A DNA stretch of 64,000 nt. Source: Eledone cirrhosa (taxonomy: Eukaryota). Positions 1 through 50,660 of the stretch are shown here, piece by piece; the first letter of the stretch is position 1, and each line of letters begins with the position of its first letter. The DNA is taken from the NCBI GenBank assembly GCA_964016885.1, contig OZ024743.1:181970001-182034000 (forward strand), given 5' to 3'. The translations under genes and the position numbers were made by a program. The notes under the pieces are model-generated. The model had not been told where the DNA came from and did not search any database. It saw nothing but the letters and a program-made list of their open reading frames with translations.

Positions 1-3000
1 TAGTCGGCTGTGGTTGGACTTCGTGTACTTTTACATGTCGCTTGAGCCCTCCTGCTGATTTACATTCTCTACCACATGTTTGGCAAGCATGATGAGTAGC
101 ATCTCTAACAGCAGCCTGGTAGTCAACCACTGGTCTTACTTTATGACTGCGAAGATGACTTTCGAATCCAGCTTTGCTTAGGCAGTCTCGCACATACGCT
201 GCATGTCAGCACCATAGGAGGACCCTCGCCGTCTGGAAGTGCAACAGCAATGCCCTTCCTCACATCCCGCTTTACTTTCTCGTATGCGATTCGAGATGCC
301 TCAAAGGCAACTTTTCCCTCATATACAGTCTTTCTCCATTTATTACGATCAGCAGCAATATTTTCCCATGTATCAGCAGAGATGTTAGCGTCTTTCAAAG
401 AGGCTTTCAAAGAATCCTTATACCTCTTTTTTTGTTTATGTGGCAGTCGTTTTCCTTTAACCAACTCTCCATAAAAGAGTTGTTTTGGTATTCTAGAATC
501 CTTCATACTGGCAAGGTGACCACTCCAACGGAGTCGTTGCTTAAGCACAAGAGCTTCTATACTGTCACACATAGAGATTTCCAAAATCTCGACATCACTG
601 ATGTGGTCCCTCCAGTGAACGCCATGGATCCGTCTGAGACACATCTGATGGAAACGCTCCAATTGCCTAAGGTGGTGGCGATATGTGACCCAGGTCTCGC
701 AGGCATAAAGAAGACAAGAGAGCACACATGCCCTGTACAACTTTACCTTTGTCCTCCTGCATATGTCTCGCCGACCCCAGAGTCGCCTTTCTAGCTTTCC
801 GAAAGCATCACTTGCTTTCCTAATCCTAAGTGAGATTTCACTGTCAAGGTTGCTGTATCGATTGACAGTGCTTCCCAGGTAGACAAACTAATCAACCACT
901 CCAAGGCGTTTACCATACACATAGATATTTGGTTCAGTGTACTGCTTACCAGGGGCAGGTTGGTACATGACGACGGTTTTCTTGAGACTGACAGTCAATC
1001 TTAGGGCAGTGCAAGCATCAGAAAATGCATTCAAAATGTGCTGCATATCACTCTCTGTGTGCACTACAAGATCGCAATCATCTGCATACAAGAGGTCTCT
1101 TATGATTGATGTAAATACTTTTGTCTTTGCAGCAAAGCGCCTAATGTTAAATGTGCTGCCTGAGGTTCGATATCGGATGTAAACACCATGCTCGCAATTC
1201 CTGAATGCAATACAGAAAACCATTGCAAAGTATATGGCAAACAGGGTCGGTGCTGGAATATCCCCCTGTTTCACTCCATTTTTTACTGAGATAGGCTCCG
1301 ACATGTTACCTCCGACATTAACCCAAACCTTCATGTCGTCATGGAAAGATCTAACTAAAGCAAGGGACTTATCAGGGCAACCAAGTTTCTGGAGAACCTT
1401 CCATAATACATCTCTGTTAACAGTATCGAAAGCTTTTGTCAGATCGACAAAAACCTGATACAGATCCAAACCTTGTTCCATGCACTTCCCTGGAGCTGTC
1501 TAGCTGAGAAGATCATAACAGTAGTGCCGCGTCCAGCACGAAAACCAGATTGACTTTCAGGAAGAACACAATCTGCAATGTGTGTCAGCAGACGGTCCAG
1601 AAGCACCCTACATAAAACTTTCCCTACGACAGAAAGCAATGATATACCTCTGTAGTTCCCACAATCATTCCTGTTACCCTTTCCCTTGTACAAGACCACC
1701 ATTACTGCATCTCTCCAGTCCTCAGGTACGGATTAATTAGCCCATATCCTGCCAAACAAAGAGTGAAGATGTTGCAGGAGTCTCTCACCACCATATTGTA
1801 GGAGCTCAGCATGTATGCCATCAATACCTGGAGACCTTCCACTGTTCAGCTTCGAGATAGCCATTGCAACCTCCACAAGCGTCGGAGGTTCTGTGAGAGC
1901 TACTTTCACAGGACTTTCTGGAATGAGATTGAGGAAATCTTCACTGACGACAGACGGCTGATTCAAAAGATCATCAAAGTGCTCTCGCCACCTTCGTAGA
2001 ATTCCTTGTGAGTCACGAAGAAGTTATTTGCCATCTCTGCTGCGAAGCGGTGTCACCAGAGAAGAAGACGGTCCATAAACCTCACGCAAGAGACTGTACA
2101 ACAGCTTTGTGTTATTGGAATCTGACGCAGTTTGTATCTCATCAGCCTTCTCACTCCACCACTGATCCTTCATCTGCGAAAAACTCCGCCTAACACGTGA
2201 TTTTACATCCTTGAGTTCCTCATGCAACGTATTCCTCTCCTGTGGTTTTGCCGTCAAGTAGCGTGACAGAGCACGCCTCTTATCAGCCAACAAGTCTTCT
2301 ATATGTACATCATTCTCATTAAACCAGTCCTGATGTTTTCTCTGCACCAATCCCAGAACACGCCTGCCTACATCATAAACCGACTTTTTAAGGGTCGGCC
2401 AATCCTCACCAAGATCTGCATCCTGCATCTCTTCTTCCAATGTCCTCTTCACATTTTTATCCTTAAGACGAGCAGCATTCAATCTTTTGGGCAGGGCAAC
2501 ACCAGGAGCCCGGATTTTACGTTTAGTGATTAGTTTCACTTTTGCGCGTACCAGGCAGTGGTCCGTCCAGCACTCAGCTCCACGAAGAGCACGAACACAC
2601 TGCACATCCTGTCTGTCACGCATCCTGACTAGGACGTAGTCCAGAAGATGCCATTCCTTAGATGCAGGATGCATCCATGTGGTCTTGAATTTGTTCTTTT
2701 GTTGGAACATGGTGTTGGTAACACACAGATCCAGCTCCTCACACATCTGCAGCAGGAGCATACCATTGTTGTTACACTTTCCCACCCCATGCTTTTCGAT
2801 TACATTCCATGTGTTAAAATCCCTACCCACTCTAGCATTAAAGTCACCAAGCACGATTACTTTATCTGCCTGAGGGATATTTCTTAAAACACCTTTCAAG
2901 GCATGGTAAAAGGACACTTTTTCTTCATCGACAGAATTCATAGTTGGAGCATACACACTCACCAGGGTCGCATATCTTCCTTTGTCCAGCGGAATTCTCA

Positions 3001-3400
3001 TGGACATAAGACGCTCACTAATCCCTACTGGGAATTCGTCTAATTTATTCACAAGAACAGTCTTAACAGCAAATCCTACCCCAGCCTCTCTTCTGGTTCC
3101 TTCATCTCTTCCTTTCCAGAAGAATGTATATTCTCCACAAAATTCTGTAAGATGACCATCTCCAGCTAACCTCGTCTCAGATAAAGCCACGATGTCAAGA
3201 TCGTAACAAGAGCGGTCCTTCGTTCAGGACGCCCCAAGGAATCCCTGTCAAGCAGCGTCCGTACGTTCCAACAGCCAAGACTAAATGCCTTGTTTGGCTC
3301 TATTACAATGGCACGATGACGAGCGGGCCCAGGCTGTGATAACCTGGGGCCCCTGCCCTTATCGCCAATTATCTTTTTTGTTCCAGAACCTAAATTGCCA
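1..3400 (-). mobile_element. RTE-clade LINE, near-full ORF (APE + RT + C-terminal C2H2 fingers), frameshifted; 3' end lies outside the window
   Basis: ORF pieces on -: GCWNVRTL / ALSETR / VSVYAPT / LGDFNARVG / WHLLDY / TDH (APE); YRGISLLS, QSGFR, FVDLTKAFDTV, GVKQG, LLYADD (RT); LYACETW, LRWSGH, RIPKQLFYGEL. Several frameshifts and stops between the pieces. Confidence 0.95.
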
Positions 3401-6835: not shown

Positions 6836-7004
6836 AGTACACCTTATGCTATTAGTACATCTTGTGCTATTAGAAAGTGAGGTTTTTTTTACAAAATGAA
6901 AAATAACCGAGGTGTCCTACACGAGTGAAAGTATAAGGAAAAAAGATGAAATCGAAAATGCAACTGGAGTCTTTTTTTTTTAAATATATATATTTATTTG
7001 GTTC

Positions 7005-7040
7005 CTTTACCGGTTTCGCAGTTCTTCTGCTTTTCAAAAG
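7005..7040 (-). ncRNA. HHR, U3-A8 core variant
   Basis: ctt-TTGAAAA-gcag/ctgc-GAAA-CCGG-TA-aag. Confidence 0.65.
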
Positions 7041-9869
7041 TAGAGTTGAGATGGAGGGTCTGTGGTTTTCCTCACATCTGGTTGGTCTTTGAATGTTACT
7101 TGTTTTATATCGAGAAAAGTGACTCGAAATGCCAGGTTTTTAGAAAAGTAATTTGATTGGCTGGTGAGTAAGTATAATTAATATCGCGCCAGTTCGCGTT
7201 AGAAAGTTCTTCAAACAAAGGGGGGTGGGGATCAGGTTGTTTTTTTCATATATGAGTGAAGTTTGGTTGGTTGATGCAGTCACCTGAATAAGCACATCAA
7301 CTTTCACGCCAGTTTGTTTGAATTTCTTTTTACTTACAGAGGAATTTTTTGACAAGGAGAATAACGACCAATCAATTGTACGGAATAAAAGCAGCTACAA
7401 CCCAACAAAAGGTAGAAACAGAGTTCTGGACAAATTTTGTGACCACATAGCAACTTTCCCATACCATGAACTACCGCAACCTAAACCCAAACCCAACACG
7501 AGTCGAAGGGAATGGGAGATTATCCATGAACTAAAAAACAATGCCGACATTATAATTAAGGAAGCGGACAAGGGAAGTACTGATGTCATTATGGATGGTG
7601 AACAATATAAAAATTCTATGTTCTCTCTCTTACAAAATACTAACTTCTATGAAAGAGTAAAAAACTACCAGCAATCAAAAGCGATGACCAGATTAAACAC
7701 ACTCATTTGTTGATACCAGGAAGACTTAACTAAAAAGGAACGCGATTATTTAACTCATTTTGAATACAAAACCAGCAACCTTTACGGATTTCCGAAGATC
7801 TACAAGTGTAAAATAATTAACGATGCCTGTAAACAATCCACCTCAACCTGCATGAACACACAATACCCCACTGACCTTAAATTAAGACCAATTGTAGCGG
7901 GCCTACAATGTGAAACTCAGACTAAGCAACTTTATAGACATACTACTAAAACCAATTTTCAAACACATACTAAGCCTTGTAAGAGACGATCTGGACCTCT
8001 TAAAACACCTCCCCAAACATGTCAACAACGACACTATTATTGTGTCTTTCGATGTAGTGAATCTCTACACAACAATCTCACACCAATACGGACTAGAAAC
8101 AATAGGATTCTGGCTAGAGAAATATCCCAATGAGATACCTGACAGAATAGAAAAAAGCTTCATCACCGAGGGATTAAAATTTATTTTACAGAACAACTTT
8201 TTTGATTTCGATGGCAGTACTTACAAGCAAATATCGGGGACTGTGATGGGTACAAAAGCCGCTCCAACTTATGCCAACTTAGTCATGGCATACTTAGAAG
8301 TCCAGATATATGAACAGTCCAAATCAAAATGCGGATTGAACTTCCACAAATATTTATCAGAGAATTGGAAACGCTACTTGGATCATTGTCTCATAATTTG
8401 GTCCTACACACTCGACCAACTATATGATTTAAAAAATTTAATTAACGGCATCAATAACCACATCCAATTCACAATGGAATACAGCCAAGATCAACTCCCA
8501 TTTCTGGACATCTTAATCTTTAAAAAAGACACAAATATTGAAACTGACATACACTACAAACCAACAGATTCCAAACAATACCTGCTATTCACCTCCAACC
8601 ATCCAAAGCACACGAAGACGAACATTCCTGTTAACCTAGCAAGAAGAATTTGCACAATTGCCTCTAATTATGAAACGGGAAATAAAAGACTTCAAGAATT
8701 AAAGGAAATTCTACTTGAAAGCAGTACCCACCATTACTAATAAATAATGGAATAGAAAGGGCTAAAGCAATAGGCATTGTGGAATTACGAAAACAGAAAC
8801 AAATTCAAGGTACATCCAATATTCTATCATATATCTCAACACACAACCCAAGAAATGCGGAAGCTTACAACACTATTCACAAGAACATCCCACTATTGAA
8901 ACAAGACCCAAGAATGAAAAAAGCCCTTGAAACACAAAATAATCAAAAGCAAAAGACAACCGAAATCACTAAAAACATTACTCACCAATGCCAAATTACC
9001 TACCACAAACCCACAACCAACTGTCAAAAAATGTGGTCGCTCTAATTGTGGAACCTGCTCTCACCTCATTGAAGGCAACACGTATACATTTCAATCAGGA
9101 CAAAATTTGCTGTAAAAAATCACTTCACTTGCTCATCAAAAAATCTACTTTATGCCATTAAATGTAAAGGATGCAATAAAGATTATATAGGACAAACTAA
9201 ACTCACACTCAGAAACAGAATGACAGTTCATCGCCAACAATTACGAGATCCATCCACGAGACAGATACCACTAAGTGAACATCTAGACATATGCGCAAGT
9301 AATAAGACACCCAAATTCCAAGTCTTCCCATTTTACCTTTGCGCTGACAATAGTACAGAACAAATACGAATAAATAAGGAAAATATGTTTATTCAAAAAT
9401 ATAGACCAGCATTAAATATAGTTTAATATACATTATGTTAACACCATAACATGCTAACCATCCAAACAGACACATACATACACACACACATAACACCTTC
9501 TACTTTAGAAAATAAAAACCAGAACTAAATAAACCTTAATATACGTTAATACTCTAACACCTTAACATGCTAACTGCCCCCCCAGACACACACACACATA
9601 AGACCTTCTACTTTAGAAAATAAAAACTAGAACTAAATAAACCTTAATATACGTTAATACTCTAACACCTTAACATGCTAACTGCCCCCCCCCCCACACA
9701 CACATAACTCCCTCCCCCCATTTCTACTAATAGAATCACTTTCCTACACACACACACACAAACTATATATATTCTCTCCATCTTACCATGCTAACCATAC
9801 TCCCACACACACATACACACATACACACACACAACTCCCTCTCCCATTTCTACTAATAGAATCATCTTG

Positions 9870-9933
<64 letters not shown>

Positions 9934-10521
9934 GCACACAAATAAACATACATATCTCTACTTTTTTTTATTTCAATAGAAAGTCTGAATTCTGACACCC
10001 CAGCGAACCAGCCATATTCACTGAACCAGAACAATTCTCCCCATCCCATTTCTCTTGACCATTATCTTTTGTTTGGCACAAAATTCTCTAAAAGCTACAA
10101 AATAAATTCCCAAATGCGGGTGCGAAATTTAATGAACTTGTTCACGTGACAATCATAATTTCATTTATAACCAATCAAATTACATTTATTTAAAAAAAGC
10201 CTCTGTGAGCCACTTTGTTTAAGTAAAAAGAAATTCAAACAAAGTGGCGCGAAAGCTGATGTGCTTATTCACGTGATTGCATCAACCAACCAAACTTCAC
10301 TCATATGTGAAAAAACAGCCTGAAGCCCCCTCCCCACCCCCCTTGTTTGAAGAACTTTGTAATGCGAACTGGCGCGAAATTTATTATACTTACTCACCAA
10401 CCAATCAAATTACTTCTCTAAAAACCTGGTATTTCGAGCCTCTTTTTTTCCATATAAAACAAGTAACATTCAAAGACCAACCAGATGTGAGAAAAACCAC
10501 AGACCCTCCATCTCAACTCTA

Positions 10522-10557
10522 CTTTTGAAAAGCAGAAGACCTGCGAAACTGGTAAAG
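10522..10557 (+). ncRNA. HHR, U3-A8 core variant (right arm copy)
   Basis: ctt-TTGAAAA-gcag aagac ctgc-GAAA-CTGG-TA-aag. Confidence 0.65.
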
Positions 10558-10631
10558 GAACCAAATAAATATATATATATTTTTAAAAAAAGACTCCAGT
10601 TGCATTTTCGCTTTCATCTTTTTTCCTTATA

Positions 10632-10970: not shown

Positions 10971-10973
<3 letters not shown>

Positions 10974-12545
10974 GTGGGAAAGTAAAAAATCGGAGAATAG
11001 ACCGTTAAAACATGTTTATTTAAAATATCACCTACGTACGTTTCGCCCAGTTGGGCTTCTCAAGGGCATAAATAATCACAAGTGTTCCTTATATAGTTCG
11101 GAAAGAGTTTTGGGGGTTAAATCTACATCAAGATTCATTGCTCGCAAAAATATCTTGTTTTGATTTTGCAGCAGGTCAAGGGAGGTAACTCTGGCCGGTG
11201 TTAGGGCAGTCTTTCCCGGATAATTTTTTTTTTTCTTTTTTTTTTTCCCCCTTTGTCTGAGGCTGGGTCTGGTATGCAAGGATTGTTTTCTGGGTGTTAT
11301 TTTGCTGCGCCTGCCCGCCGGGGTGTTAAGACTTGTTGCAGGGAGATCCAGTGTACTATTTCACTCTTCATTCTTAACCCATCTAAAGAAGGATATTTTT
11401 AAGCGATGTGTACAACTTATCGCTGTTTCAGTTCTGCTGTTGATGAGCTCGTGGGGTGCAGTTATGATGTGGTAGAGCTCCATGAGGCAAAGATCGCATT
11501 TCCTCTTGAAGTTGTACGGTGCAGCCCTGCCGACAATCTCCCAGTGCGTGGAGAAGCTAATGTTTAAGTCCTTTAGTGATGTGATGTAGTCCGCGAGCGA
11601 AGTGGAGTGCCTTAGTTTTCTATTTGTGAAAGAGTGGAGATGTGTTCGAAACCTAATTTTGAACGGGCCGGAGGTGGCCCCTATATAATGTTTAACGCTA
11701 TTGTGGCTAGTAATAGTGCATCTATATATAACCCTATCAGTCAAGCAGTATCCTCTAAGGGGGCATCGTCCTCTGTCGCGGCAGTTGCAATTTCTGTCGC
11801 GGTTCCGTCGATTTCCCACGGTAAGGCTATCATTGTTGCTGCCTACGTTGTTACCTACGCTACCGCAACTGTCGTTAGCACAATTACAACCCACAGCACG
11901 CGGGATGGTGCGATTGTTATTCCGCACGTCATGTTCTGCATGTTCCCCAGTCACTTCGCGGTCATTCTGGTTGCGTCTGCGGATGCCGTTGCCAACACTA
12001 TTGGATGCTGTCAGGGAGTTGTTAAGGCCGATACAGTTATTGTCAGGTGTAGGTGCGTCTGCGTCGAGGTGCTGTGTCTTGGTCATCTTACTGTGGTTCG
12101 TTGTTCCTATGATGTCTGCTAGGTTATGAGTAGTAGAGAAGGATATTTTTATATTGTTCCTATTAAGAAAAAAAAAAAAAAAATTATCCGGGAAAGACTG
12201 CCCTAACACCGGCCAGAGTTACCTCCCTTGACCTGCTGCAAAATCAAAACAAGATATTTTTGCGAGCAATGAATCTTGATGTAGATTTAACCCCCAAAAC
12301 TCTTTCCGAACTATATAAGGAACACTTGTGATTATTTATGCCCTTGAGAAGCCCAACTGGGCGAAACGTACGTAGGTGATATTTTAAATAAACATGTTTT
12401 AACGGTCTATTCTCCGATTTTTTACTTTCCCACGTGCTTACGCTCTGCTAACTCTCTAGCCCACTAAATATTAACACTTCGAATATTTAATACTGCCGGC
12501 ACTAGTATCGAGCACCTTTGGCATACGCTACTTGGCAAATAACTA
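10971..12545 (-). mobile_element. Nematis-like PLE 3' fragment with GIY-YIG endonuclease and inverted arms (10971-11245 / 12165-12435)
   Basis: ORF 11361-12209: NRNNIKISFS, CNCRDRGRCPLRGYCL, VIYRC...YIGAT..FKIRF..H..SF, CDLCLME, LINSRTE...CTH; arms appear near-identical. Confidence 0.9.
12339..12378 (+). ncRNA. HHR, U3-A8 core variant (mirror copy at 11029-11068, -)
   Basis: tgccc-TTGAGAA-gccca ac tgggc-GAAA-CGTACG-TA-ggtg. Confidence 0.7.
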
Positions 12546-12591
12546 TATGTATCACCTATCCCTCCTTTTTCTCTCTTTCTCGATACGTAAA

Positions 12592-12626
<35 letters not shown>

Positions 12627-14039: not shown

Positions 14040-14045
<6 letters not shown>

Positions 14046-14331
14046 AAGAATGAAGAGTAACATGGTTGGCTGTTACAACAAGGGGCTTTATTTCAGGTAT
14101 TAACAATTGTTTCATTGTTGTACATTGGCCCTTGTTGTACAGCCAACCATGTGACTCTTCATTCTTTCACTATTATTACTCCAAGTATAACCTACATAGG
14201 AATTCCCGCGAACTCGCTGCCTAACTATAGAAACATCTTGTTGAGTCAAACAAAGCCGTACGTTAAAACTATCCACGATGTAGAGTACTCACAACCTCTA
14301 ACTGGATTACCTATAGCGATAACTTGTTACC

Positions 14332-14335
<4 letters not shown>
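14040..14335. repeat. Fold-back (arms 14040-14085 / 14128-14172) with 3' extension; truncated PLE-type insertion
   Basis: ~45-bp inverted arms; the loop holds the 3' half of an HHR on - (GAAACAATTGTT...AATAAA); (TA)n on both sides. Confidence 0.65.
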
Positions 14336-14406
<71 letters not shown>

Positions 14407-14413
<7 letters not shown>

Positions 14414-15022
14414 CACGTGCTTATGCCGTATTTGACTAAATAGAATTAGTCTCTTAGTTTGAAATTTTTAAAAAACCCTCTGAATGGGAAAAAAAAGGAT
14501 GAGTACTGACGTACATGGGACACGAACCCACACCTTTGGTTTGCCGGACCGTTGTGTAACCATTAGACCAACACGACATCCATGTTTCCTTCCATTCAAT
14601 TAGAAGCTACATAACGATGGCAGGTATATATATTTATATAAATAGGGAGACACAAAGCAGGCTCTGTTTAGAAATGGCTAGCGAATTTGAAAATTAGGAA
14701 ATAACATGTGGTTATGCCGTATTTGACTAAATAGAATTAGTCTGTTGGTTTGGATTTAAAAAGAACTCTCTGAATGGAAAAAAAAGAATGAGTATTGACG
14801 TACAAGGGACACGAACCAACATCTTTAGTTTGCCGAAGCATTGAGCTACCATTACACCAACACGTCACCCATGCTTCCTTCCATTCAATTAGAAGCTATA
14901 TAACTATAGCAGGTAAATATATGTATATAAACAAATCCCAACGTACGGCGTAAGCACATGTTACTACCTAATTTCTAAATTCGATAGCTGTTTCTAAATA
15001 AAGCCTGCTTCGTGTCTCCCTA
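14407..15022 (-). mobile_element. Tandem (~291-bp period) plus inverted-arm element with tRNA-like core
   Basis: 14407-14700 repeats at 14698-14932; 14944-15022 is the reverse complement of ~14643-14721; (TA)n flanks. Confidence 0.75.
14507..14577 (-). pseudogene. tRNA-like cloverleaf (second copy at 14796-14866); apparent anticodon GGC, degenerate
   Basis: Acceptor GACGTGT/GTACGTC, A-box TGGTGTAATGG, T-arm GTGGG TTCGTGT CCCAT, discriminator A, T-run about 10 nt downstream; anticodon stem mismatched. Confidence 0.65.
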
Positions 15023-15069
15023 TATATACATATATATATGTGTGTGTGTGTGTATGTGTGTGTGTGTGT

Positions 15070-15295
15070 GTAAAAGGTAAACAGAAATAACAACACAATC
15101 GGTACACTATATGGAAGGGTTATATTAGGTTAACGCTTGATATAGCAGGAAGAGGGTCTTAATGTTTCGGACGCTAGTCCTTCATCAGAAGAAAGAATGA
15201 GAAATAAGATAGATTGACGGGACGAGTGGGATGGAATTGGAAAAAAATGTCTTTAGATCAAAAATAACAGGTCCACTCATGTTGACATCTCTTGC
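15070..15295 (-). mobile_element. pLTR-like unit with HHR at 15157-15192; related copy at 38120-38265
   Basis: tctt-CTGATGA-a-ggac tagc gtcc-GAAA-CA-TT-aaga. Confidence 0.7.
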
Positions 15296-15479
15296 AATAT
15301 ATATATATATATATAAGTATTTATATATATATATATATATATATATAGTTTTTATTTATTTTACTTTACATGGGTTTCCAATTTTACAAAGTTTATGTAA
15401 AAACAAAATAAACTATTAAAGGACCCAAAAAAGAAAAAAGAAAAAGAAAAAAAAGGAAAGGAAAAAATAATCAAGCAAC

Positions 15480-15880
15480 GAAAGAAAGGGGGGGGGGCGA
15501 TACCACGTCCCAGTCTGGGTGGTGCCTCAGCCGCGGCCCGTAGACAAAATGACAGAAAAACTTTACCGCAGAGACTGGCCATCCCCACCTCACGGGCTCC
15601 CTCCTCAAGTGGGCCGCCGTCTCCGATTTTAAGGAGTGCGGGTATCAAGGACACCAGAGCTCTCGACGGAGACCAGTACAAGCGAGAAGCGGTCGATCAG
15701 GCCCCGGTACGTGACTATCTCCCTCTCCCCTGTGGGGACCAAAGACGTCAAAGGACTCGACAGACTGGTACAAAGATGTAGAGGTCGGTCAGGCCCTGGT
15801 ATTTGACTATCTCCTTCTCCTCTGCATTGCGGGCAGCGGAGCCCGGGTTTGTTGCCAAAGCAACAAGCTTGTTGGTTATG
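15480..15880 (-). mobile_element. CRE-like non-LTR retrotransposon RLE C-terminal fragment with internal duplication
   Basis: ATNPGSAARNAEEKEIVKYQGLTDLYIFVPV..., repeated as EREIVTYRGLIDRFSLVLVSVESSGVL; similar to 56100-56250. Confidence 0.6.
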
Positions 15881-17151
15881 AGAGTTACCTGGCATCATCG
15901 ACCACAGAATTAGAAATTAAAAATAAAACAGGAGTTGAATATTGTTACATTGGCTGAATTATATGAAACATGGTGGGAACATTACGTTCGCTCTCACCAA
16001 AAATAGGTCAAAATTGACAAAAACAATCTAAAAGAAAAATGAGTAAATAGGACAAAAACAAAATATAACAAAAGAAAAGAGGGGTGCTGTTAAAACAGTA
16101 AAGCCAGTGGGACCAGGCCTTCAGATTAACAATAATTTAAATTGATCAATTTGTTTAAGCTTCGGGGAAAACTCTGTATGTATACAAAAATTAAGTAGTT
16201 ATTTCCCTGTCAGTGGGAAGTTTGTAACGTCAGAAGACTGTTTTATTGTTCCCACGCCATTTTAATTCACGTGACCAGGATAATTTGCCTCGCTTTGATG
16301 AATAAGAAATAAATAAATACATTATATATACACTGACTGCACTATTTTGTTTTTTAAAAAAATTTTGTTTGTTTTGGGGGGTTTTTTTCGGATTGCGAAA
16401 CAGTTTTATTTTAACCCCGTTTGACCTTTCTCTTGTAAAGCAGTAATTTAGACAGTTGGCTTTACTTATATATCATTAACTAGTAATGCAACTCTGGCGC
16501 TATCCAGGAAAATTTCTTCTTTCTTTCTTTCTTTTTTTTTCTTTCCGTCCTTCTTTCTTTCTTTTTATATTTTTATTTATTCTATATATTGATTTATTTT
16601 ATTTATTTATTTATTTGCCTTTGCTTTTCAGAAATCGAAATATTGTCGTTACTATTCAATATCCTACCTATTTTGTTCCTCTTCTTCTCCCACTTATTCC
16701 TGAGAGGGTCGTAGGGTCAGAGCCCTCAAACACCCCTTCCAGCGGGTCCTGTCAGAAGCAACCGTCTCCAACCTATTGTTGTTGTTTTTTATAGATCATT
16801 TTTTCTTTTGTTCTTTTTCACTGCAACTTCTCTCAATCTGCTGACAATAAACCAGCCCTACTTATGTTTCTTCCGTAACCTCTCCCCTACACACGTCAAC
16901 CATAATGTCTGACTCCCTAAACATTTACTACCCATCTTTCTTTTTCTTTTTTTTTTTTTGAACTCTATCCTTACTTTTTGTTCCTCTCAAGACAGAGTTC
17001 TCATGAAACGGAACATTAACAGCGTCAGCCGTAAACGGCAACAGTAACAGACCTTCGCTCCAACAACAACAGTCTCTTACCCCAACTACCACAGTTAGGT
17101 GTTCCTCTCATATACATATATACATATGTCACATACACACATTCTCTCTAA

Positions 17152-17747
<596 letters not shown>

Positions 17748-17748
<1 letters not shown>

Positions 17749-18130
17749 GTTTGTTTTGCAAGGTTTTTTTATATGAAATGGTGTGTCGAAACAAATATTG
17801 TTATACTTGGGGAGGGTCATATTGTTGTAATAATATTGTGCCAGAAATAATAACAGAACACACTCACTGTTTGGTTGGTTATCGCTTCTGTATATTTTAT
17901 ATCTCCATAGTTAATTCATTTGGCCATCAATGTTTATCACTGACTGACTAAGGGTCAAAAATACAGATATAAATACATATATATAGTCTAACAAACTTCT
18001 TTCGTTGCATATCTGCAACATCATCAGTGGTACTATTATGTTTCCTCCTGTTGTCACAGTGGTGGTGTACTGTTTGTGGATATGTGGTAGGATGCCTTCA
18101 TTAATCAGTAAACTAATTCAGAGAGGGAAG
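17748..18130 (-). mobile_element. pLTR remnant of a Naiad-related family with degenerate HHR (17989-18032)
   Basis: Terminal motif ATATTGTTATACTTGGGGAGGGTCAT; CTGATGA-t-gttgca gata tgcaac-GAAA on -. Confidence 0.7.
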
Positions 18131-18280
18131 TGCACAAGAGGCTGATACTGTCATTCTACAATTCTTTAAATAAAATTATTTCTATTTAAAAAAAAGGTGT
18201 GGGGGGGGGGGGGGTTAAATGGCAGAAATTGTTTTAGTTTCAAAACAAGATCTCAGATCAAGTCACTCGTCTGGCAAGTA

Positions 18281-18861
18281 CTCTCGGGTCTCCAATAATC
18301 TCTCCCCCCCCCACACACACACTTATTAATATTTCAAATTTTTTTCGACCCCCCCCCCCCCCCTTTCTGCTTATTAAATATTGCTAATCTATCTCCAGCG
18401 AAATGTTATTTTAAGTGGTAGCATTCCTGCGACAATTAATTTTCTTTACACATAAAAAAATACATTAAAAAAAAAATACATGCCAAAAAAAAAAAAATAC
18501 CGTATTTCCCGGCGTCGAAGATGGTACTTTTTTCCTAAAATAAGTCTCAAAATTCTACCATGCGTCCTGGAGGCCGAAGGTTGCATTTTGCATTTTTTTT
18601 TTTTTTTTTTTTTTTTTTTTGGTTGTCAAAATTAGGGTGCGTCTTCAGCGCCGGGAAATATAGTAAATTACTAGAAATACCAAACGTTATAAAATAAATA
18701 GGATAGGTTGTGGTCTCAATATGTAAACTAAACGACTAATTCTAGTTTTTTTTTAAATCAACGGAGACAACTTAGAAAAATTACCGATCCCCACTACTTA
18801 TTCCACCCTTATTCCACCTCCATTTTGTCCCACCTCACACCTATTATTTGGGACCCGAGAG
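18281..18861. mobile_element. Tc1/mariner-pogo-type MITE
   Basis: TIRs CTCTCGGGTCTCCAATAAT / ATTATTTGGGACCCGAGAG, TA target duplication. Confidence 0.75.
18500..18663. mobile_element. Nested pogo-type MITE
   Basis: TIRs CCGTATTTCCCGGCGTCGAAGA / TCTTCAGCGCCGGGAAATATAG, TA flanks. Confidence 0.75.
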
Positions 18862-19985
18862 TACAACTTCAAAATAACGTTACATGTATGGCAACACTAC
18901 CCCAAATTTCAACACTAATTCTACAGCCATGTTGACGCCAACACTGCGGTATCAATCAGAACTTCAAAGGGGTAAAAATACTCGGTTAATTTCCGCTAAG
19001 TTATCGAATTACGACAAACCAGGGAGTCCTTTTAGATCTATTCGCGCTCATTTGAATACTTGTCACCCCACCATAATATACACAGGATGTTTCTATGTGA
19101 TCACTTGGTCTGCTAGAAATATCAGCTAAATCTGCCTCCAAATCATACCCTGCCATCTTAAAAACGGCAAGAATATATTGTATAATGCAATCCGAGATAC
19201 ACAATGTATGAAATATCAGATGTTATATCCATTACTGAAATACCTTTTTTATTATAAGTCTGTTGAAAGAGGGTTAATTAAGAGTTAAACAACAATACGC
19301 GGATACTTTATCAAACCATATGTTAAGGGTTTTTTTAAAGATTAAGGCTTGCTAAGAACTTCTTAAGCGTCTTGTCGTGTACTTTTAGCTTCTGGACATT
19401 TAAAAAGCGTCTTATGTCAGTACATATATATTCATTAGGGATATGAAATCAAACAAAATAATAATAATAATTGTTTCTACTTTAGGCACAAGGCCAGCAA
19501 TATGAAGGGGAGAGGAAAATCGATTAAATCGACCCCAGTACATTACTGGTACTTTATTTTATCAATCCCGTGAGGATGAAAGGCAAAGCTAACCTCGGTG
19601 GAAGTTGACCTCAGAATGTAAAGAGACGTAACTATATATCGCAAAGCATGGTGTCCGACACTCTACCGATACTGCATGTGCAATGTAATCTGTTGAATGG
19701 ATAGTCCTTAATATAAGACGTTACAGTAAGGAGCAGGGCACGCATTACTCGTTCGTAATATAGAAGAATATTGGCGGAATAATCATATAAAATTTCAGTA
19801 AATTGTAGTTATAGCAGGCCATACATAACGACCAGGGATAGAAAATAGAAAGTATGTGCAGTAGAGAAGGACAGTTACCCAGCTGATGTTAACATTATGG
19901 TAAAGATAAATGATAAAGAAAAGATATCTAGCAATTAGAATTTGTTTTTTCGTTCTACCATAGCGGATACGCAAATGTATTCGTG

Positions 19986-20140
19986 ATAATATTCGATTCT
20001 TTTCCAAGCAAACAACCCCATTACGCTATGTTTGTTTAGATGACCAATGTCATCCTTTTGTTCTAGAGGAAGGATGGCGATGGTCATCTGAAAAACATAG
20101 CGTAATGAGGCAGTTTGCTTGCAAACGAATCGAATATTAT
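19986..20140. repeat. Imperfect ~155-bp palindrome (MITE-like)
   Basis: ATAATATTCGATTC...CATTACGCTATGTTT...AGATGACCA pairs with TGGTCATCT...AAACATAGCGTAATG...GAATCGAATATTAT. Confidence 0.75.
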
Positions 20141-20159
20141 TATTATTATTCGATATAAA

Positions 20160-20385
20160 AAGGGCGGTGGATTGGCAGTATCGGTAGTGGGTCGGACGCC
20201 ATGTTTTGCAGCAGAGAGTTACGGCCCTTTATGATCTGAGTTCAAATCCCGCCGAGGTTAACTTTGCCTTTCATCCTTACGGGGTCGATAGAGTAAAGTA
20301 CCAGTCACGCACTGATTTCGATTTAATCGACTTTCACCTCCCCCAAAATTGATGGCCTTGTGCCTATATAAGAAACCATTATTAT
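20160..20385 (+). mobile_element. tRNA-derived SINE family B (Meta-domain-like); other copies at ~19470-19670, 22540-22700, 22760-23190, 38745-38935, 38948-39255, 53805-54440
   Basis: GGCGGTG(A/G)ATTGGC head, GAGTTCAAATCC B-box, AACTTTGCCTTTCATCCTTACGGGGTCGATA...AAGTACCAG core. Confidence 0.85.
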
Positions 20386-20629
20386 TCGATATAAAACTCA
20401 CGAATATATCTCTAGCAATGTAATATGAAATCTGCAGGTACTCTACCTGGATTATAGATTTATAACTTATTACTTCAGCTCCACTTTTGAGAAAGTGGGA
20501 TTCACATAAAAAAAAATAGGAAGGTAAAGTAATAACAGCGCCCCCTATTAAAAACTTTTACCTAAACTTATTAACGGCCCCTTGTAATGGTAAATTGGAA
20601 TACCGTTGATAGCAAACAGTATAACAAGC

Positions 20630-21020
20630 ACATACATACACAAACACACACTAGTCACCAAAGATAGAATATAAACACATAAACACACAGAGACTCAGAC
20701 ACGAGCAAACGAGCACACACCAAATAGAACACACGCACATAAACGCATGCGCAAACAGAGATAACAAAAACAAAACGTTATAGAAACACATGTGGAAAAA
20801 CAGCGATAATCGCTGAAGATGTCATAGAAATGTGTGATGAAAGAACTTTGAGAAATTATATTTATATTTATATTTTCAACTATTGGTCAATCAATGATAA
20901 ACATCGATTGCCATCTAAATTATTTATAAAAATATAAAAATATACTGAAGCGAAAATCAAACCAAATAGTGAGTGTATTTTACTATTAGGACAACATGAC
21001 CCTCCCCAAATATAACAAAA
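20630..21020 (+). mobile_element. Old pLTR remnant (Naiad-related) with degenerate HHR at 20809-20852
   Basis: CTGAAGA-t-gtcat...gtgat-GAAAGAACTT-tga; terminal CATGACCCTCCCCAAATATAAC. Confidence 0.65.
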
Positions 21021-24000
21021 GATGGGTAAGTCTGTTCTATTGAATATATAAAATAATGTTAATACAGTATAGAAATGTCGTAAATGTAAACTAAGAAATA
21101 TACATAAATCTACTCTAATTGATTGTAATATATCTGTAAAACAGTCCGGCAAACTCTAATAAAATTTCCAGCATATTTACGAAAGTTAGTAACAAAAATA
21201 GAGAAATGACAAAATTAGAGACAAAATGTAATTTATATGTTACTATAGTATTTGATCGCTCAACCATGGAATTGATCAAATAGCAAGTTACAGTAAAGAT
21301 CGTGCAGGTGAAATGGTCAAGTTACAGCGAACAAAACTCATGGGTCAAATCAAGAGAGTTATTGCTCTGTTTTTCTACAAGAAGTTAGTTAAATTAAAAA
21401 GGTCAACATACTAGTTATAAAAACTAATGTCCTTGTGTGAGAGGTAATTTTACTGCACGGCTCAAAGGTTGCAAACGTTCTTTCTTTCCTTCTTCTTCTT
21501 CTTATTATTCTTCTTCTTCTTCTTTGCTCATTTATTCCTGAGAGGGTCGTGGGAGCAGAGTCCTCAAACATTCCTTCCATCGGGTCCTGTCAGAAGCATC
21601 GGTTACTATCCTCACTGGAAGCCAAATAAAGATACAGTATACATTCCTCTAATAACATTTCACGTATGGTGTACCATAGGGATTGGTATTTTCAACTAAT
21701 ATTTTCACTGTCTTTTCACGCCTTAAAAATATACAGACAGCCTTATATGAAGATATCACATTCTTATCTTTCCACTATTTTCCAGACACAGCTGCATAAC
21801 TATTCCAATGAATGTCATACAAATCAGTTCCACAGCATCAGACTTAATGTAACAACAGCAGAACTATTGTCTCCTTTCTTAACAGAGACACCAGAGAAAT
21901 GTGGTACCAACAAAAACTATTGTTTCCTTTTTGCCAGTGACCAGAGAGATGTGGTAATCAACGATGCCACCGTTTATCACACACACACACACACACGCAT
22001 GTGTGTGTGTGTGTATGTCACAAACGGTGACATCGTGTGTGTGTGTGTGTGTATGCGCACGTGTGTGTTCTGCTGTTTCTGGTCGTAAAACCTTATATAT
22101 TTTTCCTTCTTCGCACAAATGTATGAGTTTTATTTTCTTGTTTTATATTTACATTCAAAAGAATTCTTTGTTGATATTTATAAAAAGGTATAGGCATGAA
22201 ATAGGAGAGAATCATTTATTATAATGGAACTGTGGAAAATGTATTGTAGATGGTTGTCGTCTGATTACTAGCAAATATTAAACTAGCTAATCTACAACAC
22301 ATTTAACTTTATTGTGTTGATCAAGGGAAACATTTTAAAAAGAACATTAAAAGATGTGAGAATGCTTTATTTAATATGTGAGACGAAAAAGAGGTTTGCA
22401 GAATGTTATGCGAGTAACACATTGTAAAATCGCATGTATCTGCTTTAACAGAGCTTTATCTGACATTGAAACCGCCAACGTTTAAACAGAAGATGAACCC
22501 AGTCAAAGCCACTGCCTATGTATGGCTTTGGCTTGTTAATAATTTTTGCCAATTTAGGCAGAGGGCCGGAAATGTTTTGGGTAGGGGAAGCCGATTAAAT
22601 CAACCCACTACTTAACTGATAGTTTATATTGTCAACCCCGGAAGGATAAAAGGGAGACCTGAGCAATATTAGCACTGGAAGATCTATTAAGTACCGTTAA
22701 GCAATGTCATGCTAAGAGGATATGGTGAGGGTGATAAACTCTTTAGTACAATCATTAATATAGGCGGTGAATTGGCGGAGTCGTTAAAACGTCGGATAGA
22801 ATGATTTGTGGTATTCATTTCGGCTATCTGTTCTCAGAGTTCAAACCCTGCCGAGGTCAACTTTCCCTTTCACCCATTCAAGGTCGATTAAAAAGTACCA
22901 GTCAAGTACTGGGGTCTATTCTTCCTCTATATCTCGCACTGCCATTCTCTCTATATATATATCCTTCTCTGGAAGATGCGCTCCGCTAGGTGTCAAAAGT
23001 GCCCTATAAACGCCATATGTCAATATAAGGACCCTACGACTCCCTCAGCATAGAATTAAGTCCCTTTACGGTTTGAGTTCAAATCCTGCCGAGGTTAACT
23101 TTGCCTTTCATCCTTACAGGGTCGATAAAATAAAGTACCAGTAATGCACTGGTCTAATTGCTGGCCTTGTGCCAAAAATAGAAACAGTTATTAGAAACAG
23201 TTATTAGCTATAAGATTTTTCGATATATTGTATTTACCGGTATTAGAGATATGAATATATTTTCATGTTCTTATAGTTACTAAAAGTTATATTATCAGCT
23301 AGATGACAATGTTGTTGAATTGGTAAAGTCTTACAATTACATTCGTCTCGCGTTGGAAATTAAATGAGTTCTTGCTTGTTTTTTTTTGTTTAATGTTTTC
23401 AATGAAACTGGCCTCCAGTCGGAAAGTAAGGATAAAATGGAAGGTGTAAGATCATGTACAATATATATGTATATTCGGCTATCTCAGCACATACATATAA
23501 ATATTGGTGTATGCATAGATGCATATATGCATATATATATATGTCAGTGTTGAACAAACGAGCAACGATGGTTTGCTGGACACTACGGCTTAATACGGGA
23601 TGTTTGTTTACAAGCACACCGAGCATTATAATAAATGTTCGGTGAATCCATACGTACATATATATATGTGTGCATGTATGTATATATATATACATACTAC
23701 TGTACGTCTGTATACATATATGTATGTACGTGTACATACTTATATTTAAGTAACAGCCGTACTAAGAGTGGGAAATGAAATTTCGTTTCATTTTTTCCGT
23801 TTATATATATATGTATATACATATATAAATACCACATAACAATCACTTTTTGTTCAATGAATCTGTGGATATGAGGAACCGCAAGCGACACTAAGGTAGA
23901 CCCTACATACATCAATATAGTCATGGGTTGTTCAATAGATCTGTTGATATCAGGAACCGCAATAGGCATTAAAGTAGCCCTTACATACACTGATATAGTC

Positions 24001-24149
24001 ATGGGATTCTATGAACAAAATATTTACAGTCAATGTCTTTTCCCCAAACTTGACTGATTTAGTAAGTATCGCTACAATGACACTCCTGGCTAAGTGGTGG
24101 CGTGATTTAGATAAAGACTTACAGACATTGACACACGGACATGAACACA

Positions 24150-24328
24150 AAGAAGAAGAAGAAGAAGAAGAAGAAGAAGAAGAAGAAGAAGAAGAAGAAG
24201 AAGAAGAAGAAGAAGAAGAAGAAGAAGAAGAAGAAGAAGAAGAAGAAGAAGAAGAAGAAGAAGAAGAAGAAGAAGAAGAAGAAGAAGAAGAAGAAGAAGA
24301 AGAAGAAGAAGAAGAAGAAGAAGAAGAA
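24150..24328. repeat. (GAA)~60 microsatellite
   Basis: Directly visible. Confidence 0.98.
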
Positions 24329-25019
24329 GGGTGGCGAGGTGGTGGTGGTGATGCTGATGATGATGGTGATGTTGACCATAATGTTGTTGTATTTGATATT
24401 TGTTGTGTTTTTTTTTCTTCTTTTTCTTTCTTCTTCCAGCAGGTCCTGTCAGAAGAAACCCTCACCAACTGATCCAGCTAGATTCCCAAAGCGAGACCCG
24501 CCATACACATGGATGTTATCCAACCATCTTTCTCGGGGTATACACCTGGTTTATCCCGTAAGATTTGTCCATCGTTTTTTTTTTCCCCGAGACATTCTAA
24601 CCACATGCCATAGTATCGGAGCTGTGATCTCTCAATACAAGTTTATTTTTTCCGTTTGTCAAATTGTCTTGTTTGTCTGTTTGTCTGTCAGTCTGTCTGT
24701 TTGTCTGTCTGTCTGTCTATCAGTCTGTCTGTTTGTCTGTCTGTTTGTCCTCTGTGTAGATATCTTGGTTGTGTCTGTCTGCCGGTCCTGTGTAGATATC
24801 TTGTTTGTCTGTATGTCTTGTGTGTAGATGTCTTGCCTGCCTGCCTGCCTGTCTGGCCTCTCTGTAGATGACGATGTTGGAACATGAATCGGAAGGAAAA
24901 GCTTGATGTTATTATGATGTGTAAAAATAGGAGTGGAAGGACAGACGAAACATTGTGTATAACAGACCTTGTCTGTGTATGGTAGAGGGTTGGTGTTAAT
25001 GCACTATCACACACACACA

Positions 25020-25565
25020 CAATCTAGGACATGCAATCTAGTAAACACCACACAAACACACACACATACATACACACATACACAGGCACATATTTATACA
25101 CACATGTATACACACACACATTCACATACACACTATCTATGACATGCAATCTAGTAAACATACACACACATGCATACACACATACACATACACACACAGG
25201 CTCACACACACACAAACAAGGAGATGCAATCTAATAAACATACACACACACACGCATACACGCATACACAGGCACACATTTACACACACACACACACACA
25301 CATACACATACAATCTAGGACATGCAATCTAATAAACATACACAAACACATACATACACACATACACAGGCACACATTTACACACACATGTATACACACA
25401 CACATATATACAATCTAGGACATGCAATCTAGTAAACATACACACACACACACGCATACACACATACATACACAGGCACACATATACACACACAGGCACA
25501 CACACACACGTACAGGCTTACACACACATGCACACACACACACACATGGAGGCACATACACACAC
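25020..25565. repeat. Five-unit irregular tandem repeat: conserved anchor CAATCTAGGACATGCAATCTAGTAAACA + variable CA-rich spacers
   Basis: Anchors at ~25020, 25135, 25222, 25311, 25411. Confidence 0.8.
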
Positions 25566-36174: not shown

Positions 36175-36309
36175 GGTAGTAATTCCACAACAGTTAATTC
36201 ACCATTTCCGAGAACAATGTGTTTCACCTTAAACGGATCATCAGCTGGTGATCCGTTTTAGGTGAAACAAATTGTTCACGGAAATGGTGAATTAACTGTT
36301 GTGGAACTA

Positions 36310-36311
<2 letters not shown>
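36175..36311. repeat. Near-perfect palindrome centred on an HHR core
   Basis: Centre TCAGCTGG at ~36244; each arm reads CTG(A/G)TGA-tcc..gg-t-GAAACA..TTGTTC outward. Confidence 0.8.
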
Positions 36312-37951: not shown

Positions 37952-39714
37952 TGTATATATATATATATATATATACTGTATATATATATATATATATATA
38001 TACTGTATATATATATACAGTATATATATATATACTGTGCGTGCGTGCGTGCGTGCGTGTGTGTGTGTGTGCGTGTGCGTGTGCGTGTGCGTATGTGTGT
38101 GTGTGTGTGTACAGTATATATATTAGGTTATATAAGGTTAACGCTCGAAACAGCAGGAAGATGGTCTTAACATTTCAGAAACTAGTCCTTCATCAGAAGA
38201 AAGAAAATAGAAAGATTGAAGGGACTGGCGGAAAAAATGTTTTTAGAGAAAAATAACGGGTCCAATATATATATATATTTCTTCGTAACGTGTTATAATT
38301 GAAGATTCAACTCAGTTAGCCAAACTTAGATACCAATTCATTTGTTTTAAACTAACATTGTCGCCTTTAGATTTACGGCCTTTGTTTAAAAGGAAAATCC
38401 ATCTATTTAATGTTTCTGGGGACCTAGCCATTATATATATACAAGAAATGTTGACCCCAGAAAAACAGACTGCCTCTTCGCTTCTAAGCTGGCCAGGCAA
38501 CTCCGACCTATGTAGTTGACTGTTCTGGCCGAGCGTATCCACTTTAACAAAGGGTTAGTTAAATTCACTACTTATAAATTCTACATTCACACACACACAC
38601 ACACACGATCCAACCAACTTAACACACCGCAATTATCTGTGTACCTTTTTCCATTGTTTATTGCTACTGTAAATGTTTAGAGAGTAAATCATGCAACAAT
38701 AAAAACATACATAAATTAGCGGTGTCTTGTTCATTTGTAAATTCATATCATAGAATGCTTTCGGGTATTTGTTCCAGCTCTATGCTCTCTGAATTCAAAT
38801 CCCGGCGAAGTCAATTTTGCCTTTCGTATTTTCAGGGTTAATAGAATAAAGTACCAGCAATCCACTGAGGTCGATTTAATCGACTGTCTCCTCCCCACAA
38901 AAATTACTGGCCTTGTGCCTAAAATAGAAATCATATCTTTATATTATAGGCGGCGAATTGACAGAGTCGTTAGAACGTCGAATACAATATTTTGTTATTA
39001 GTTCTGGCTCTCTGCTCCCTGAGTTCAAATCCCGCCCCATGTCAACTTTGCCTTTCAAAGTCGATAAAAAAAGTACCAGTCTAGTACTGGGGTCGATTCT
39101 TCCTTTATATCTCTTGCTCACTTCCTCTCCTTTACTTTCTACCAATTACTGGAAGAAATGTGCTGTGTTCTGACCTGGAGAGGGCTAGGCTCCACCAGGC
39201 TTAAAATGCCCAACAAACGCCGTTATGCCACTAAGGAGCCCCTCTGATTCCATTGGGAGTTACAATTACAGTATCACAGCACCACAGCAAGCGACTACAA
39301 CTAATGGTTTCATTGACCATAGAGAGACTTCACAGTAACAATTCTCTCGACTCACTGAAACAATACTTCACTCACTTGTCATGGACTCGAACAACCAACC
39401 ACTCATTCAACTATTTCATCTACTCCTCTCACAAGTCCTAGAGCGAGAGAGGCGGACGTAGGGACTATACCAGTATTACTGAAGTATTTTGCAGTTAACT
39501 TAAATGTTAAGTGATTTCCTTTGTAATTGGAGTTCTTATTGTTGTTTTTGTTGTTTGTTATTGTTGTTGTTTAGTCCACGGTGAGTCAAGTTTGAGCCGA
39601 CCTATGACCAAAAATGTGTAATATTCAATTTTCTAAACAAAACAAAAATGTAATCAATTCATACCACAATAGATGTGTGCTAAGCCTCACATGTATGTCT
39701 ATATATATATATAC

Positions 39715-41670: not shown

Positions 41671-41712
<42 letters not shown>

Positions 41713-42668
41713 CGTTTCTGAATTTGTTTAGCAAGATTCTTTATCTGAAATCGTGTGTTGAAACTGATATTGTTATACTTTGGGAGGGTCATGTTGCCAA
41801 TAAGAAACACACGCACCAGTTGCTTTCACTTCAATTTATTATTATAATAAATTTATAATAAATTTATAAATTTATAAATTTCTGGTTGGTTGGTTCCACA
41901 ACCAGATAGTTGTTTATATATTGTCATAGTTCTTTCATCACACACTCTGTGACCTCTTCAGTGACTGGGGATTCCTTTCTTTGTTTCTGTGCCTCTCCTT
42001 TGTTCTGTCCTACGCCATTTTGTTTCTGTGTGTGTGTTGTGTGCTCAGTCTGCGCATGCGCCACATCCGGGTGTCTGTGTGTGTTTATGTTCATTTATTT
42101 ATTTGTGTATTTACATGTTACTGGTTGGTTGTTTGTTCTATGTGTGTGTGTGTTTTCATTTTGTCCTTAATTGTAAGTTGTGATGTTGCTGTTCCACTCA
42201 TATTTTCTATTTAATTTTGGTTGTAATTCTTTTATGTTTATTGCCTCTGTAATTTGTCTAAACATTGCGTCTTTTCTGTGTGTAGATTCTATTTTTATTT
42301 CTATGTTCTCTAATTTACCCTTGTGTTCTATTTTAGCATGTTGATAGAGTACAGATGATTCTTTACTATCTTGAAGGTCTCGCCAGTGTTCATTTATCCG
42401 TTCCCCTACACTACGAGCTGTCTCACCTATGTACACTATATTTTTGTCTCTCCATTGTCCTTCAGTACATCTTATGCTATACACTACGTTTCTAGTTTTA
42501 CAGTTAATATGGGGGCTTATTTTACAGGTTATACATTTCTTATCTATACATGAGGGTCTTTGAAAAGGGTATGTCTTGCTAATAAGTGTTTTTACGGAGG
42601 TACCTGGTCTTTCTACTATCTTAATATTGAGTTTATATTTATTTAGGGCCAAAATTGACGGTATAAAT

Positions 42669-45821: not shown

Positions 45822-46022
45822 GGACAAAATGAAAACACACACACACATAGAACAAACAACCAACCAGTAACATGTAAATACACAAATAAATAAATGAACA
45901 TAAACACACACAGACACCCGGATGTGGCGCATGCGCAGACTGAGCACACAACACACACACAGAAACAAAATGGCGTAGGACAGAACAAAGGAGAGGCACA
46001 GAAACAAAGAAAGGAATCCCCA

Positions 46023-46065
46023 GTCACTGAAGAGGTCACAGAGTGTGTGACGAAAGAACTATGAC
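46023..46065 (+). ncRNA. Minimal type-I HHR in pLTR (mirror copy at 41923-41965, -)
   Basis: gtca-CTGAAGA-g-gtcac agagtgt gtgac-GAAA-g aa c-TA-tgac. Confidence 0.85.
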
Positions 46066-46202
46066 AATACATAAACAACTATCTGGTTGTGGAACCAACC
46101 AACCAGAAATTTATAAATTTATAAATTTATTATAATAATAAATTGAAGTGAAAGCAACTGGTGCGTGTGTTTCTTATTGGCAACATGACCCTCCCAAAGT
46201 AT

Positions 46203-46261
<59 letters not shown>

Positions 46262-46262
<1 letters not shown>

Positions 46263-46975: not shown

Positions 46976-47124
46976 ACTTGAAACAGAGGAAATGTATATA
47001 AAATTATGAAGAAAAAAGTTTGATCGCTACAGAGAGCTAAGATTACAGTTACATACTCCAGGGGGGATTACAATTGCTTAAAGGCGGTTACAATTTGCAG
47101 GACATTGCTGTAGAAAGTAAGCTG

Positions 47125-48784: not shown

Positions 48785-48844
<60 letters not shown>

Positions 48845-48850
<6 letters not shown>

Positions 48851-50606: not shown

Positions 50607-50660
<54 letters not shown>

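Follow-up and report, generated by a model that had tools for sequence, protein, structure and literature searches.

A dispersed family with Penelope-type insertion geometry and a tRNA-like module, in its lineage a likely Pol III promoter, in Eledone cirrhosa

SINEs of tRNA origin are generally regarded as dependent on LINEs, some elements that rely on LTR retrotransposons also have tRNA promoters, and tRNA folds are cut by RNase P and RNase Z. A short locus at positions 14407–15022 of the window (the whole 64,000-nucleotide stretch of Eledone cirrhosa DNA that was analysed) raises the question whether a tRNA-like sequence may also be carried by Penelope-like elements (PLEs) and, if so, what it does there. 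The initial annotation had suggested a non-autonomous PLE partner in which a tRNA cloverleaf stands in place of the hammerhead and acts either as a Pol III promoter or as a processing signal.

The locus and its families

Read on the minus strand, the locus consists of an inverted arm with the tail, a 12-nt filler, a complete unit and a second unit that runs to about position 230, and both of its ends are embedded in microsatellite. The features are as follows.

14334..14406, no strand: (TA)36 microsatellite, the target, bordering the short 3' end of the insertion (sequence and TRF)
14407..14642, minus strand: 3'-most copy of the unit (unit about 1–230), ending at the short 3' end of the family, without the tail
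14489..14496, minus strand: T8 run in the trailer; pairing with the purine-rich leader (about 14578–14597) is predicted
14507..14577, minus strand: decayed tRNA-like cloverleaf with C33, GGC at the anticodon position and U58 (Rfam RF00005, 26.3 bits)
14643..14931, minus strand: complete unit of 289 nt, whose tail joins the start of the next unit (partial tandem)
14643..14692, minus strand: optional tail of about 50 nt between the short and long 3' ends (approximate boundary, from end distributions)
14778..14785, minus strand: T8 run in the trailer of the complete unit
14796..14866, minus strand: second decayed tRNA-like cloverleaf (Rfam RF00005, 17.5 bits)
14932..14943, no strand: filler at the head-to-head junction, resembling unit about 172–181 on the plus strand (by eye)
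14944..15022, plus strand: inverted, 5'-truncated, tail-bearing and outward-facing arm (unit 208–286)
15023..15071, no strand: TA/TG microsatellite bordering the tailed end of the inverted arm

The tandem unit with a short tail-bearing inverted arm in (TA)n, as initially described, is borne out by TRF (14408–14931, period 289 bp, 1.8 copies, 86% match), by the arm at 14944–15022, which repeats the last ~80 nt of the unit with the tail included, and by the TA flanks. The description of a cloverleaf with a downstream T-run in each unit also holds: a T8 run lies ~10 nt past each cloverleaf, both of which score below the Rfam tRNA cut-off of 29 bits, and ARAGORN found no tRNA at default settings and both copies at a relaxed threshold. 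As had been noted, a hammerhead core, strict or relaxed, was found on neither strand of the doubled unit, no ribozyme family was among the Rfam matches to E 10, and no LINE-type tail was found at the family ends. A hammerhead-bearing short repeat at 15073–15296 (minus strand), either retrozyme-like or a PLE end, shares a microsatellite with the locus and also occurs at 38126–38264 and beside several family copies.

The locus is a member of a non-coding family of ~286 bp (F1) that is dispersed in the genome. Searches of the genome (G000, 3.0 Gb) gave 2,255, 1,676, 850 and 1,779 first-look candidates, of which in each search the best 40 were scored and 30 fetched, so that the samples are best matches and not random draws. 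In the first search 40 of 40 scored candidates matched, which together with the 2,255 candidates means that the locus is neither a chance structure nor a local duplication, and the possibility of a single-copy locus is refuted. As the first query spanned the tandem junction and hence selected for it, the architecture was counted on later F1 samples.

The 52 F1 units have a mean identity of 93.5% to the column majority. Their 3' ends are fixed (about 231–247 or 285–286), their 5' ends are variable, and 16 of 30 core-picked copies reach the unit start. The tRNA occupies unit positions 66–136 with all four stems paired, C33 and U58, the B box therefore being without A58, and the sense strand contains three T-runs of 4 or more (T6+T6+T4). 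In fold predictions the purine-rich leader pairs with the trailer that holds the T-run, lengthening the acceptor helix (fold z of -4.9 in L173 and of -3.0 and -1.7 in the window copies). A search for a parent tRNA gene with RF00005 gave 16 matches, none of which resembles this tRNA (63 of ~552,000 candidates scored).

The younger sister family, F2, is 271 bp long with 98% identity to its own majority and 1,349–1,396 candidates. A further sister family, F2b (28 candidates), was fetched after the T-arm contrast between F2 and F1 described below, and it retained A58, as predicted. Both sister families have the insertion geometry of F1. The A and B boxes characteristic of SINEs are intact in both F2 and F2b, with A58 and a perfect B box; U33 is kept in F2 and variable in F2b. 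The F2 sense strand has a single T-run of 4 or more (T5) in a unit of 63% AT. The tRNA scores reach 43.8–49.7 bits, five of five tested family copies being above the cut-off. At three of the four stem positions that differ between F1 and F2, wobble maintains the pairing, and two-sided compensatory changes were not seen in the cloverleaf between these two families. The invariant U33, purine 37 and A58 and the score of a functional tRNA gene are not all present: F1 has C33 and U58, F2 has U37 and a 27:43 mismatch, and the window copies score below the cut-off.

F2 also forms an array of 38 units over 10.3 kb (L167–L171 joined, 15110–25373; G000:C4 near 264.916–264.926 Mb), which has a partial tail at its start, stops at the short end and lies inside (TA)n. 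This array is a satellite grown from a single PLE-type insertion, and variant patterns common to distant units suggest DNA-level expansion. Separately, one insertion (L127, 1146–1678 in the minus-strand frame) contains six tandem repeats of the tRNA portion (F2 unit 59–116), and these end at the T-arm position where F2 copies usually stop.

Insertion geometry and comparison with known elements

Head-to-head insertions were found in 14/29, 16/29 and 14/28 F1 loci (three partly overlapping samples) and in 13/28 and 14/28 F2 loci, and the tandem and inverted structure is thereby recurrent, with about half of the loci head-to-head in all five samples. The arms overlap in unit coordinates in 13 of 14, 11 of 16 and 13 of 14 F1 pairs and in all F2 pairs (13/13 and 14/14), so that a pair represents two separate copies rather than a single piece that was inverted. 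One short and one tailed end were combined in 13 of 16 F1 pairs (core-picked) and in 14 of 14 F2 pairs (not tail-picked). The tail-to-start junction, that is, the partial tandem or pseudo-LTR, occurred in 3/29, 7/29 and 11/28 F1 loci and in 6/28 and 8/28 F2 loci. A microsatellite lay at the 3' flank in 23/29, 19/29 and 20/28 F1 loci, where at tailed ends the TA-rich start of the unit itself can mimic such a flank, and in 28/28 and 27/28 F2 loci. The 3' ends directly abut the target with no poly(A), simple-repeat or LINE-type tail. Flanking duplications of 9–14 bp were present in 5 of 86 F1 loci (samples overlap) and in 0 of 56 F2 loci, and ordinary SINE structure with duplications, which would have refuted the initial reading, was not the rule. 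Helitron or MITE origin was rejected on geometry, namely the fixed 3' and variable 5' ends and the overlapping head-to-head arms.

The same geometry (two ends, inverted arm, TA flanks) is found in an autonomous PLE at window 41711–46210, PLE-A, with a 1,085-codon open frame, GIY-YIG and CxxxxCxxC linker motifs recognised by eye, a hammerhead core at 46027, a 57-nt tail and an inverted arm of 98% identity. A very young PLE-A subfamily, with 38 of 40 scored candidates at ~100% identity, has this geometry too, and its tail continues into the 5' start of the element; judging from the many nearly identical copies it looks recently active. Pfam gave no family for the PLE-A frame or for the PLE-C fragment and a sub-threshold RVT_1 match for PLE-B, so the PLE identity of all three relies on the by-eye motifs (GIY-YIG, CxxxxCxxC), the hammerhead-like cores and the geometry. 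Other PLE-type insertions with inverted arms in (TA)n lie at window 6932–10631, 10972–12595, 48844–49490, 14042–14333, 50657–50996 and 36179–36310; some carry hammerhead-like cores, and the one at 48844–49490 has an unusually long stem II region with a B-box-like motif.

The head-to-head arrangement with a tail at one end is described as typical of PLEs (PMC8557442), and the tail is placed between two internal reverse transcription start sites (PMC11167929). Hammerhead mutants leave insertion in vitro unaffected, cleavage not being needed (PMC11167929), and Naiads and most Chlamys are described without a hammerhead (PMC8557442); consequently the absence of a hammerhead here needs no substitute. 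The PLE characters seen are the pseudo-LTR partial tandems, the inverted 5'-truncated arm, the optional tail at one end and the microsatellite target, while the hammerhead usual in the PLE pseudo-LTR is absent from the F1 unit. Since the family-wide insertion geometry matches that of autonomous PLE-A, the proposal of a non-autonomous PLE passenger is well supported, and F1 is very probably a real, high-copy, non-autonomous element with PLE insertion signatures.

Among known systems the non-autonomous Chlamys PLEs such as MRC1 are described as likewise non-coding, with pseudo-LTRs, head-to-tail multimers and microsatellite targets; however, their 3' ends are generally similar to that of an autonomous family, whereas this similarity is weak or absent in F1 and F2, and the tRNA module central to F1 and F2 is not mentioned for them in the available part of the source (PMC8557442). 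Animal non-LTR retrozymes are also short non-coding tandem units proposed to be moved by PLEs, but they are defined by a type I hammerhead in each unit, and none was found in the F1 unit (PMC7761336; bioRxiv 10.64898/2026.07.22.740005); the term "tRNA" occurs 0 times in the searchable text of the latter preprint. In TRIMp3 elements (Helenus, Ajax and Cassandra) an internal tRNA- or 5S-derived Pol III promoter in the terminal repeat and a non-LINE partner are shared features, yet these elements depend on LTR retrotransposons, as indicated by the primer-binding site and 5-bp duplications, and F1 and F2 have PLE geometry (PMC10886601). Like SINEs of tRNA origin, the families carry A and B boxes derived from a tRNA, and F2 shows a start immediately upstream of it; unlike them, F1 and F2 use either of two 3' ends without a LINE-type tail, form head-to-head arms, retain the whole cloverleaf and mostly lack target duplications. 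SINE tail and target-site duplication were looked for at the family ends in the sampled loci and were not found as a rule of the family. The SINE-like hammerhead repeats of Schistosoma are the Sm-alpha repeats, whose promoter is of tRNA origin. In them, as proposed for the lineage of F1 and F2, each tandem unit contains a Pol III promoter from which the following unit is transcribed. They carry an active hammerhead, and PLE-type tails and head-to-head arms are not described for them in the accessible text of PMC6765202.

The family thus works like a SINE with a Penelope carrier, lacking the tail and duplication of the former class and the hammerhead of retrozymes. No tRNA-derived, PLE-mobilised element was found in the searched literature outside subscription journals. 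These sequences may already stand in Repbase, Dfam or published repeat libraries under a different name; PMC13282606, for one, gives 893 unclassified SINE families as recently active.

The role of the tRNA module

The 5' ends of genomic copies bear on this role, each sample being the best-scoring 30 of ~1,000–2,000 candidates and the arms of one insertion being counted separately. Arms that cross the tRNA start at -5..+1 in 21 of 42 F2 cases, a cluster that comes mostly from a query beginning near the start site (2 of 8 in a sample picked by the 3' part), and in 0 of 43 F1 cases, with two F1 arms at -6; in F1 the tRNA is therefore internal, as first described, and not at a SINE-type 5' end. 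In F2 18 of the 21 clustered starts lie upstream of +1, five junctions fall exactly on G after C at -4, and few starts occur in the 10 nt upstream. Starts upstream of +1 fit Pol III initiation and not RNase P cleavage. Arms starting at nt 74 are 2 of 44 in F2, and the copies run through the tRNA. With no sign of RNase P or RNase Z ends, the genomic 5' ends suggest that this lineage likely uses the tRNA as a Pol III promoter and not as a hammerhead substitute. The promoter role initially proposed is consequently supported for the F2 lineage, with its perfect B box, one T5 run and 5' ends at -4..-1, and is not supported for F1, which has lost A58, has three T-runs of at least 4 and shows no starts at -5..+1.

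A second signature lies on the other side of the module. Arms that reach the tRNA from the 3' side stop within nt 55–74, the T-arm, in 31 of 44 F2, 22 of 43 F2b and 3 of 34 F1 cases (Fisher test against F1, p 4e-8 for F2 and 7e-5 for F2b; both arms of each insertion counted, with the array locus L164 and two loci of the F2b sample left out). Most stops lie 5–6 nt on the 3' side of A58, where a palindromic CATG provides microhomology. This CATG by itself does not account for the peak, since F1 shares the T stem and CATG of F2, differs in the T loop and has no peak; microhomology alone is thus insufficient. m1A58 blocks reverse transcription. This modification is the preferred candidate for the T-arm barrier, but changes at A58 in read-through copies are 3 of 70, with no clear misincorporation; a T-loop cut or a bound protein would leave the same signature. 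F1, with no start cluster or T-arm stops and with more than half of its core-picked copies reaching the unit start, was probably copied from longer read-through RNA, as far as its genomic ends indicate.

Three other explanations were weighed against this. That the family is PLE-mobilised and its tRNA is a processing signal in place of the hammerhead, with RNase P and/or RNase Z cutting tandems to monomers that are possibly circularised as in retrozymes, would be consistent with the pairing of all four stems in the F1 majority and the wobble-kept stem differences, with the 38-unit F2 array and its PLE-type ends, and with units circularly permuted across the tail-to-start junction. This half of the initial proposal was not upheld and is quite unlikely: the clustered F2 starts upstream of +1 are impossible for an RNase P product, hardly any arm starts at nt 74, F1 has no starts at the 5' boundary, the array variant patterns suggest DNA-level expansion, and two-sided compensatory change is not seen. 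A passive tRNA-like piece, taken up between PLE 3' ends from a tRNA gene or the head of a SINE and moved with read-through transcripts of the host, fits present-day F1 with its broken B box, T6+T6+T4 runs, absent start cluster and copies running to the unit start, and PLEs are reported to move host sequences in trans (PMC8557442). It is nevertheless an improbable account of the whole lineage, as it leaves unexplained why the 5' boundary of F2 is so sharp at -4, why an AT-rich F2 unit has just one T-run of at least 4 and why the T-arm barrier goes together with A58.

It is very improbable that the family is a conventional tRNA-SINE mobilised by a LINE that targets microsatellites, with its inversions made by twin priming. 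The F2 copies that begin at the start site do look like SINEs headed by a tRNA, microsatellites are the targets of some R4-clade LINEs, and the few F1 loci with 9–14-bp duplications point the same way; but twin priming gives non-overlapping pieces of one RNA, and here the arms overlap in unit coordinates, each with its own 3' end and one of them tailed, with no poly(A) or simple-repeat tail and no F2 locus with duplications. A non-autonomous PLE passenger whose lineage likely uses its tRNA as a Pol III promoter is accordingly the probable reading.

For such a passenger the following course may be proposed. Transcription of F2 and F2b by Pol III would begin ~4 nt ahead of the tRNA and would in part continue past the single T5 run, to the tail or into the next unit. 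The PLE protein would then start reverse transcription at either internal site (short end or tail end), and the two initiation sites would yield two cDNAs joined 5'-to-5'. The RNA likely folds as a tRNA, and reverse transcription would mostly halt at the T-arm, owing to m1A58, a T-loop cut or the fold, with cDNA joining at the nearby CATG microhomology. F1 would have lost A58, and hence the B box and the T-arm barrier, and its longer read-through RNA would likely span unit junctions. The further view that these are true SINEs with a PLE partner, in which host m1A58 blocks PLE reverse transcription and F1 escaped by losing A58 at the cost of its promoter, is tentative and rather doubtful; if true, the 5' ends of the copies in the genome preserve the record of a contest between host and retroelement. 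Comparing F1 with F2 allows a direct test of whether tRNA modification restricts retrotransposition.

The candidate autonomous partner and other observations

At one locus (L129) a young PLE-A arm is joined 5'-to-5' to an F2 arm through a 14-nt AT-rich filler, with both 3' ends in (TA)n. A single insertion that drew on two RNAs would be expected to produce such an arrangement, of which this is the only case. Searching with the L129 junction gave no second PLE/F2 chimera among 40 scored candidates, and PLE-A also stands beside these families in other orientations via TA tracts, that is, as co-occurring independent insertions. At another locus (L090) an F1 arm is directly joined to a different PLE-like end (family D), which later insertion explains equally well.

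The identity of the tail with that of an autonomous PLE, which the initial annotation had proposed as a check, was not found for F1: there was no resemblance to 6 PLE ends, no match to the tail profile and no partner in 201 loci. The F2 tail against the PLE-A tail gave z 2.0 and p 0.046, in 1 of 12 comparisons. A five-sequence tail profile of the PLE-A clade matched one F2b tail in register (3.3 bits, 1/300 shuffles) and had no match in F1 or F2. An nhmmer search of 201 masked loci (666 kb) found no non-family sequence with this 3' end, the matches being to the family and tRNA-like sequences, and no foreign upstream sequence was seen in 29 tail-picked loci. PLE-A or a relative is the best candidate partner of F2 within the small part of the genome sampled.

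If the preferred reading is true, Penelope-like elements are a third carrier of such sequences, beside LINEs and LTR retrotransposons. An RNA of 270–290 nt with two reverse transcription start sites and little or no similarity to its partner would be a minimal substrate for recognition by a PLE protein, and it lets one ask how head-to-head, one-tailed insertions arise. Thousands of copies would be mis-annotated as tRNA pseudogenes or unclassified SINEs.

The tRNA search also returned a separate dispersed element (L093 and L095–L103, around 1500–1573), which has a fixed 5' end with a short hairpin, often after (TA)n, and an internal tRNA-like sequence of 53–72 bits with variable anticodons, mostly of GGC type. 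Ten of the 16 matches come from this element, and counts of tRNA genes would be inflated by it. Two further loci (L092 and L094) hold high-scoring tRNA genes in apparent tandem clusters with decayed neighbours and shared spacers.

Elsewhere in the window a broken LINE with endonuclease and reverse transcriptase motifs recognised by eye lies at 144–3223 (minus strand), and a mariner-like transposase fragment at 46262–47026 (minus strand) interrupts the TA tract that follows PLE-A. A minisatellite with a 51-bp unit in 28 copies occupies 54620–56070. Over 56632–63999 extends a 7.3-kb tandem array, imperfect and (CAA)-rich, whose long open frames include one that is Thr/Pro-rich.
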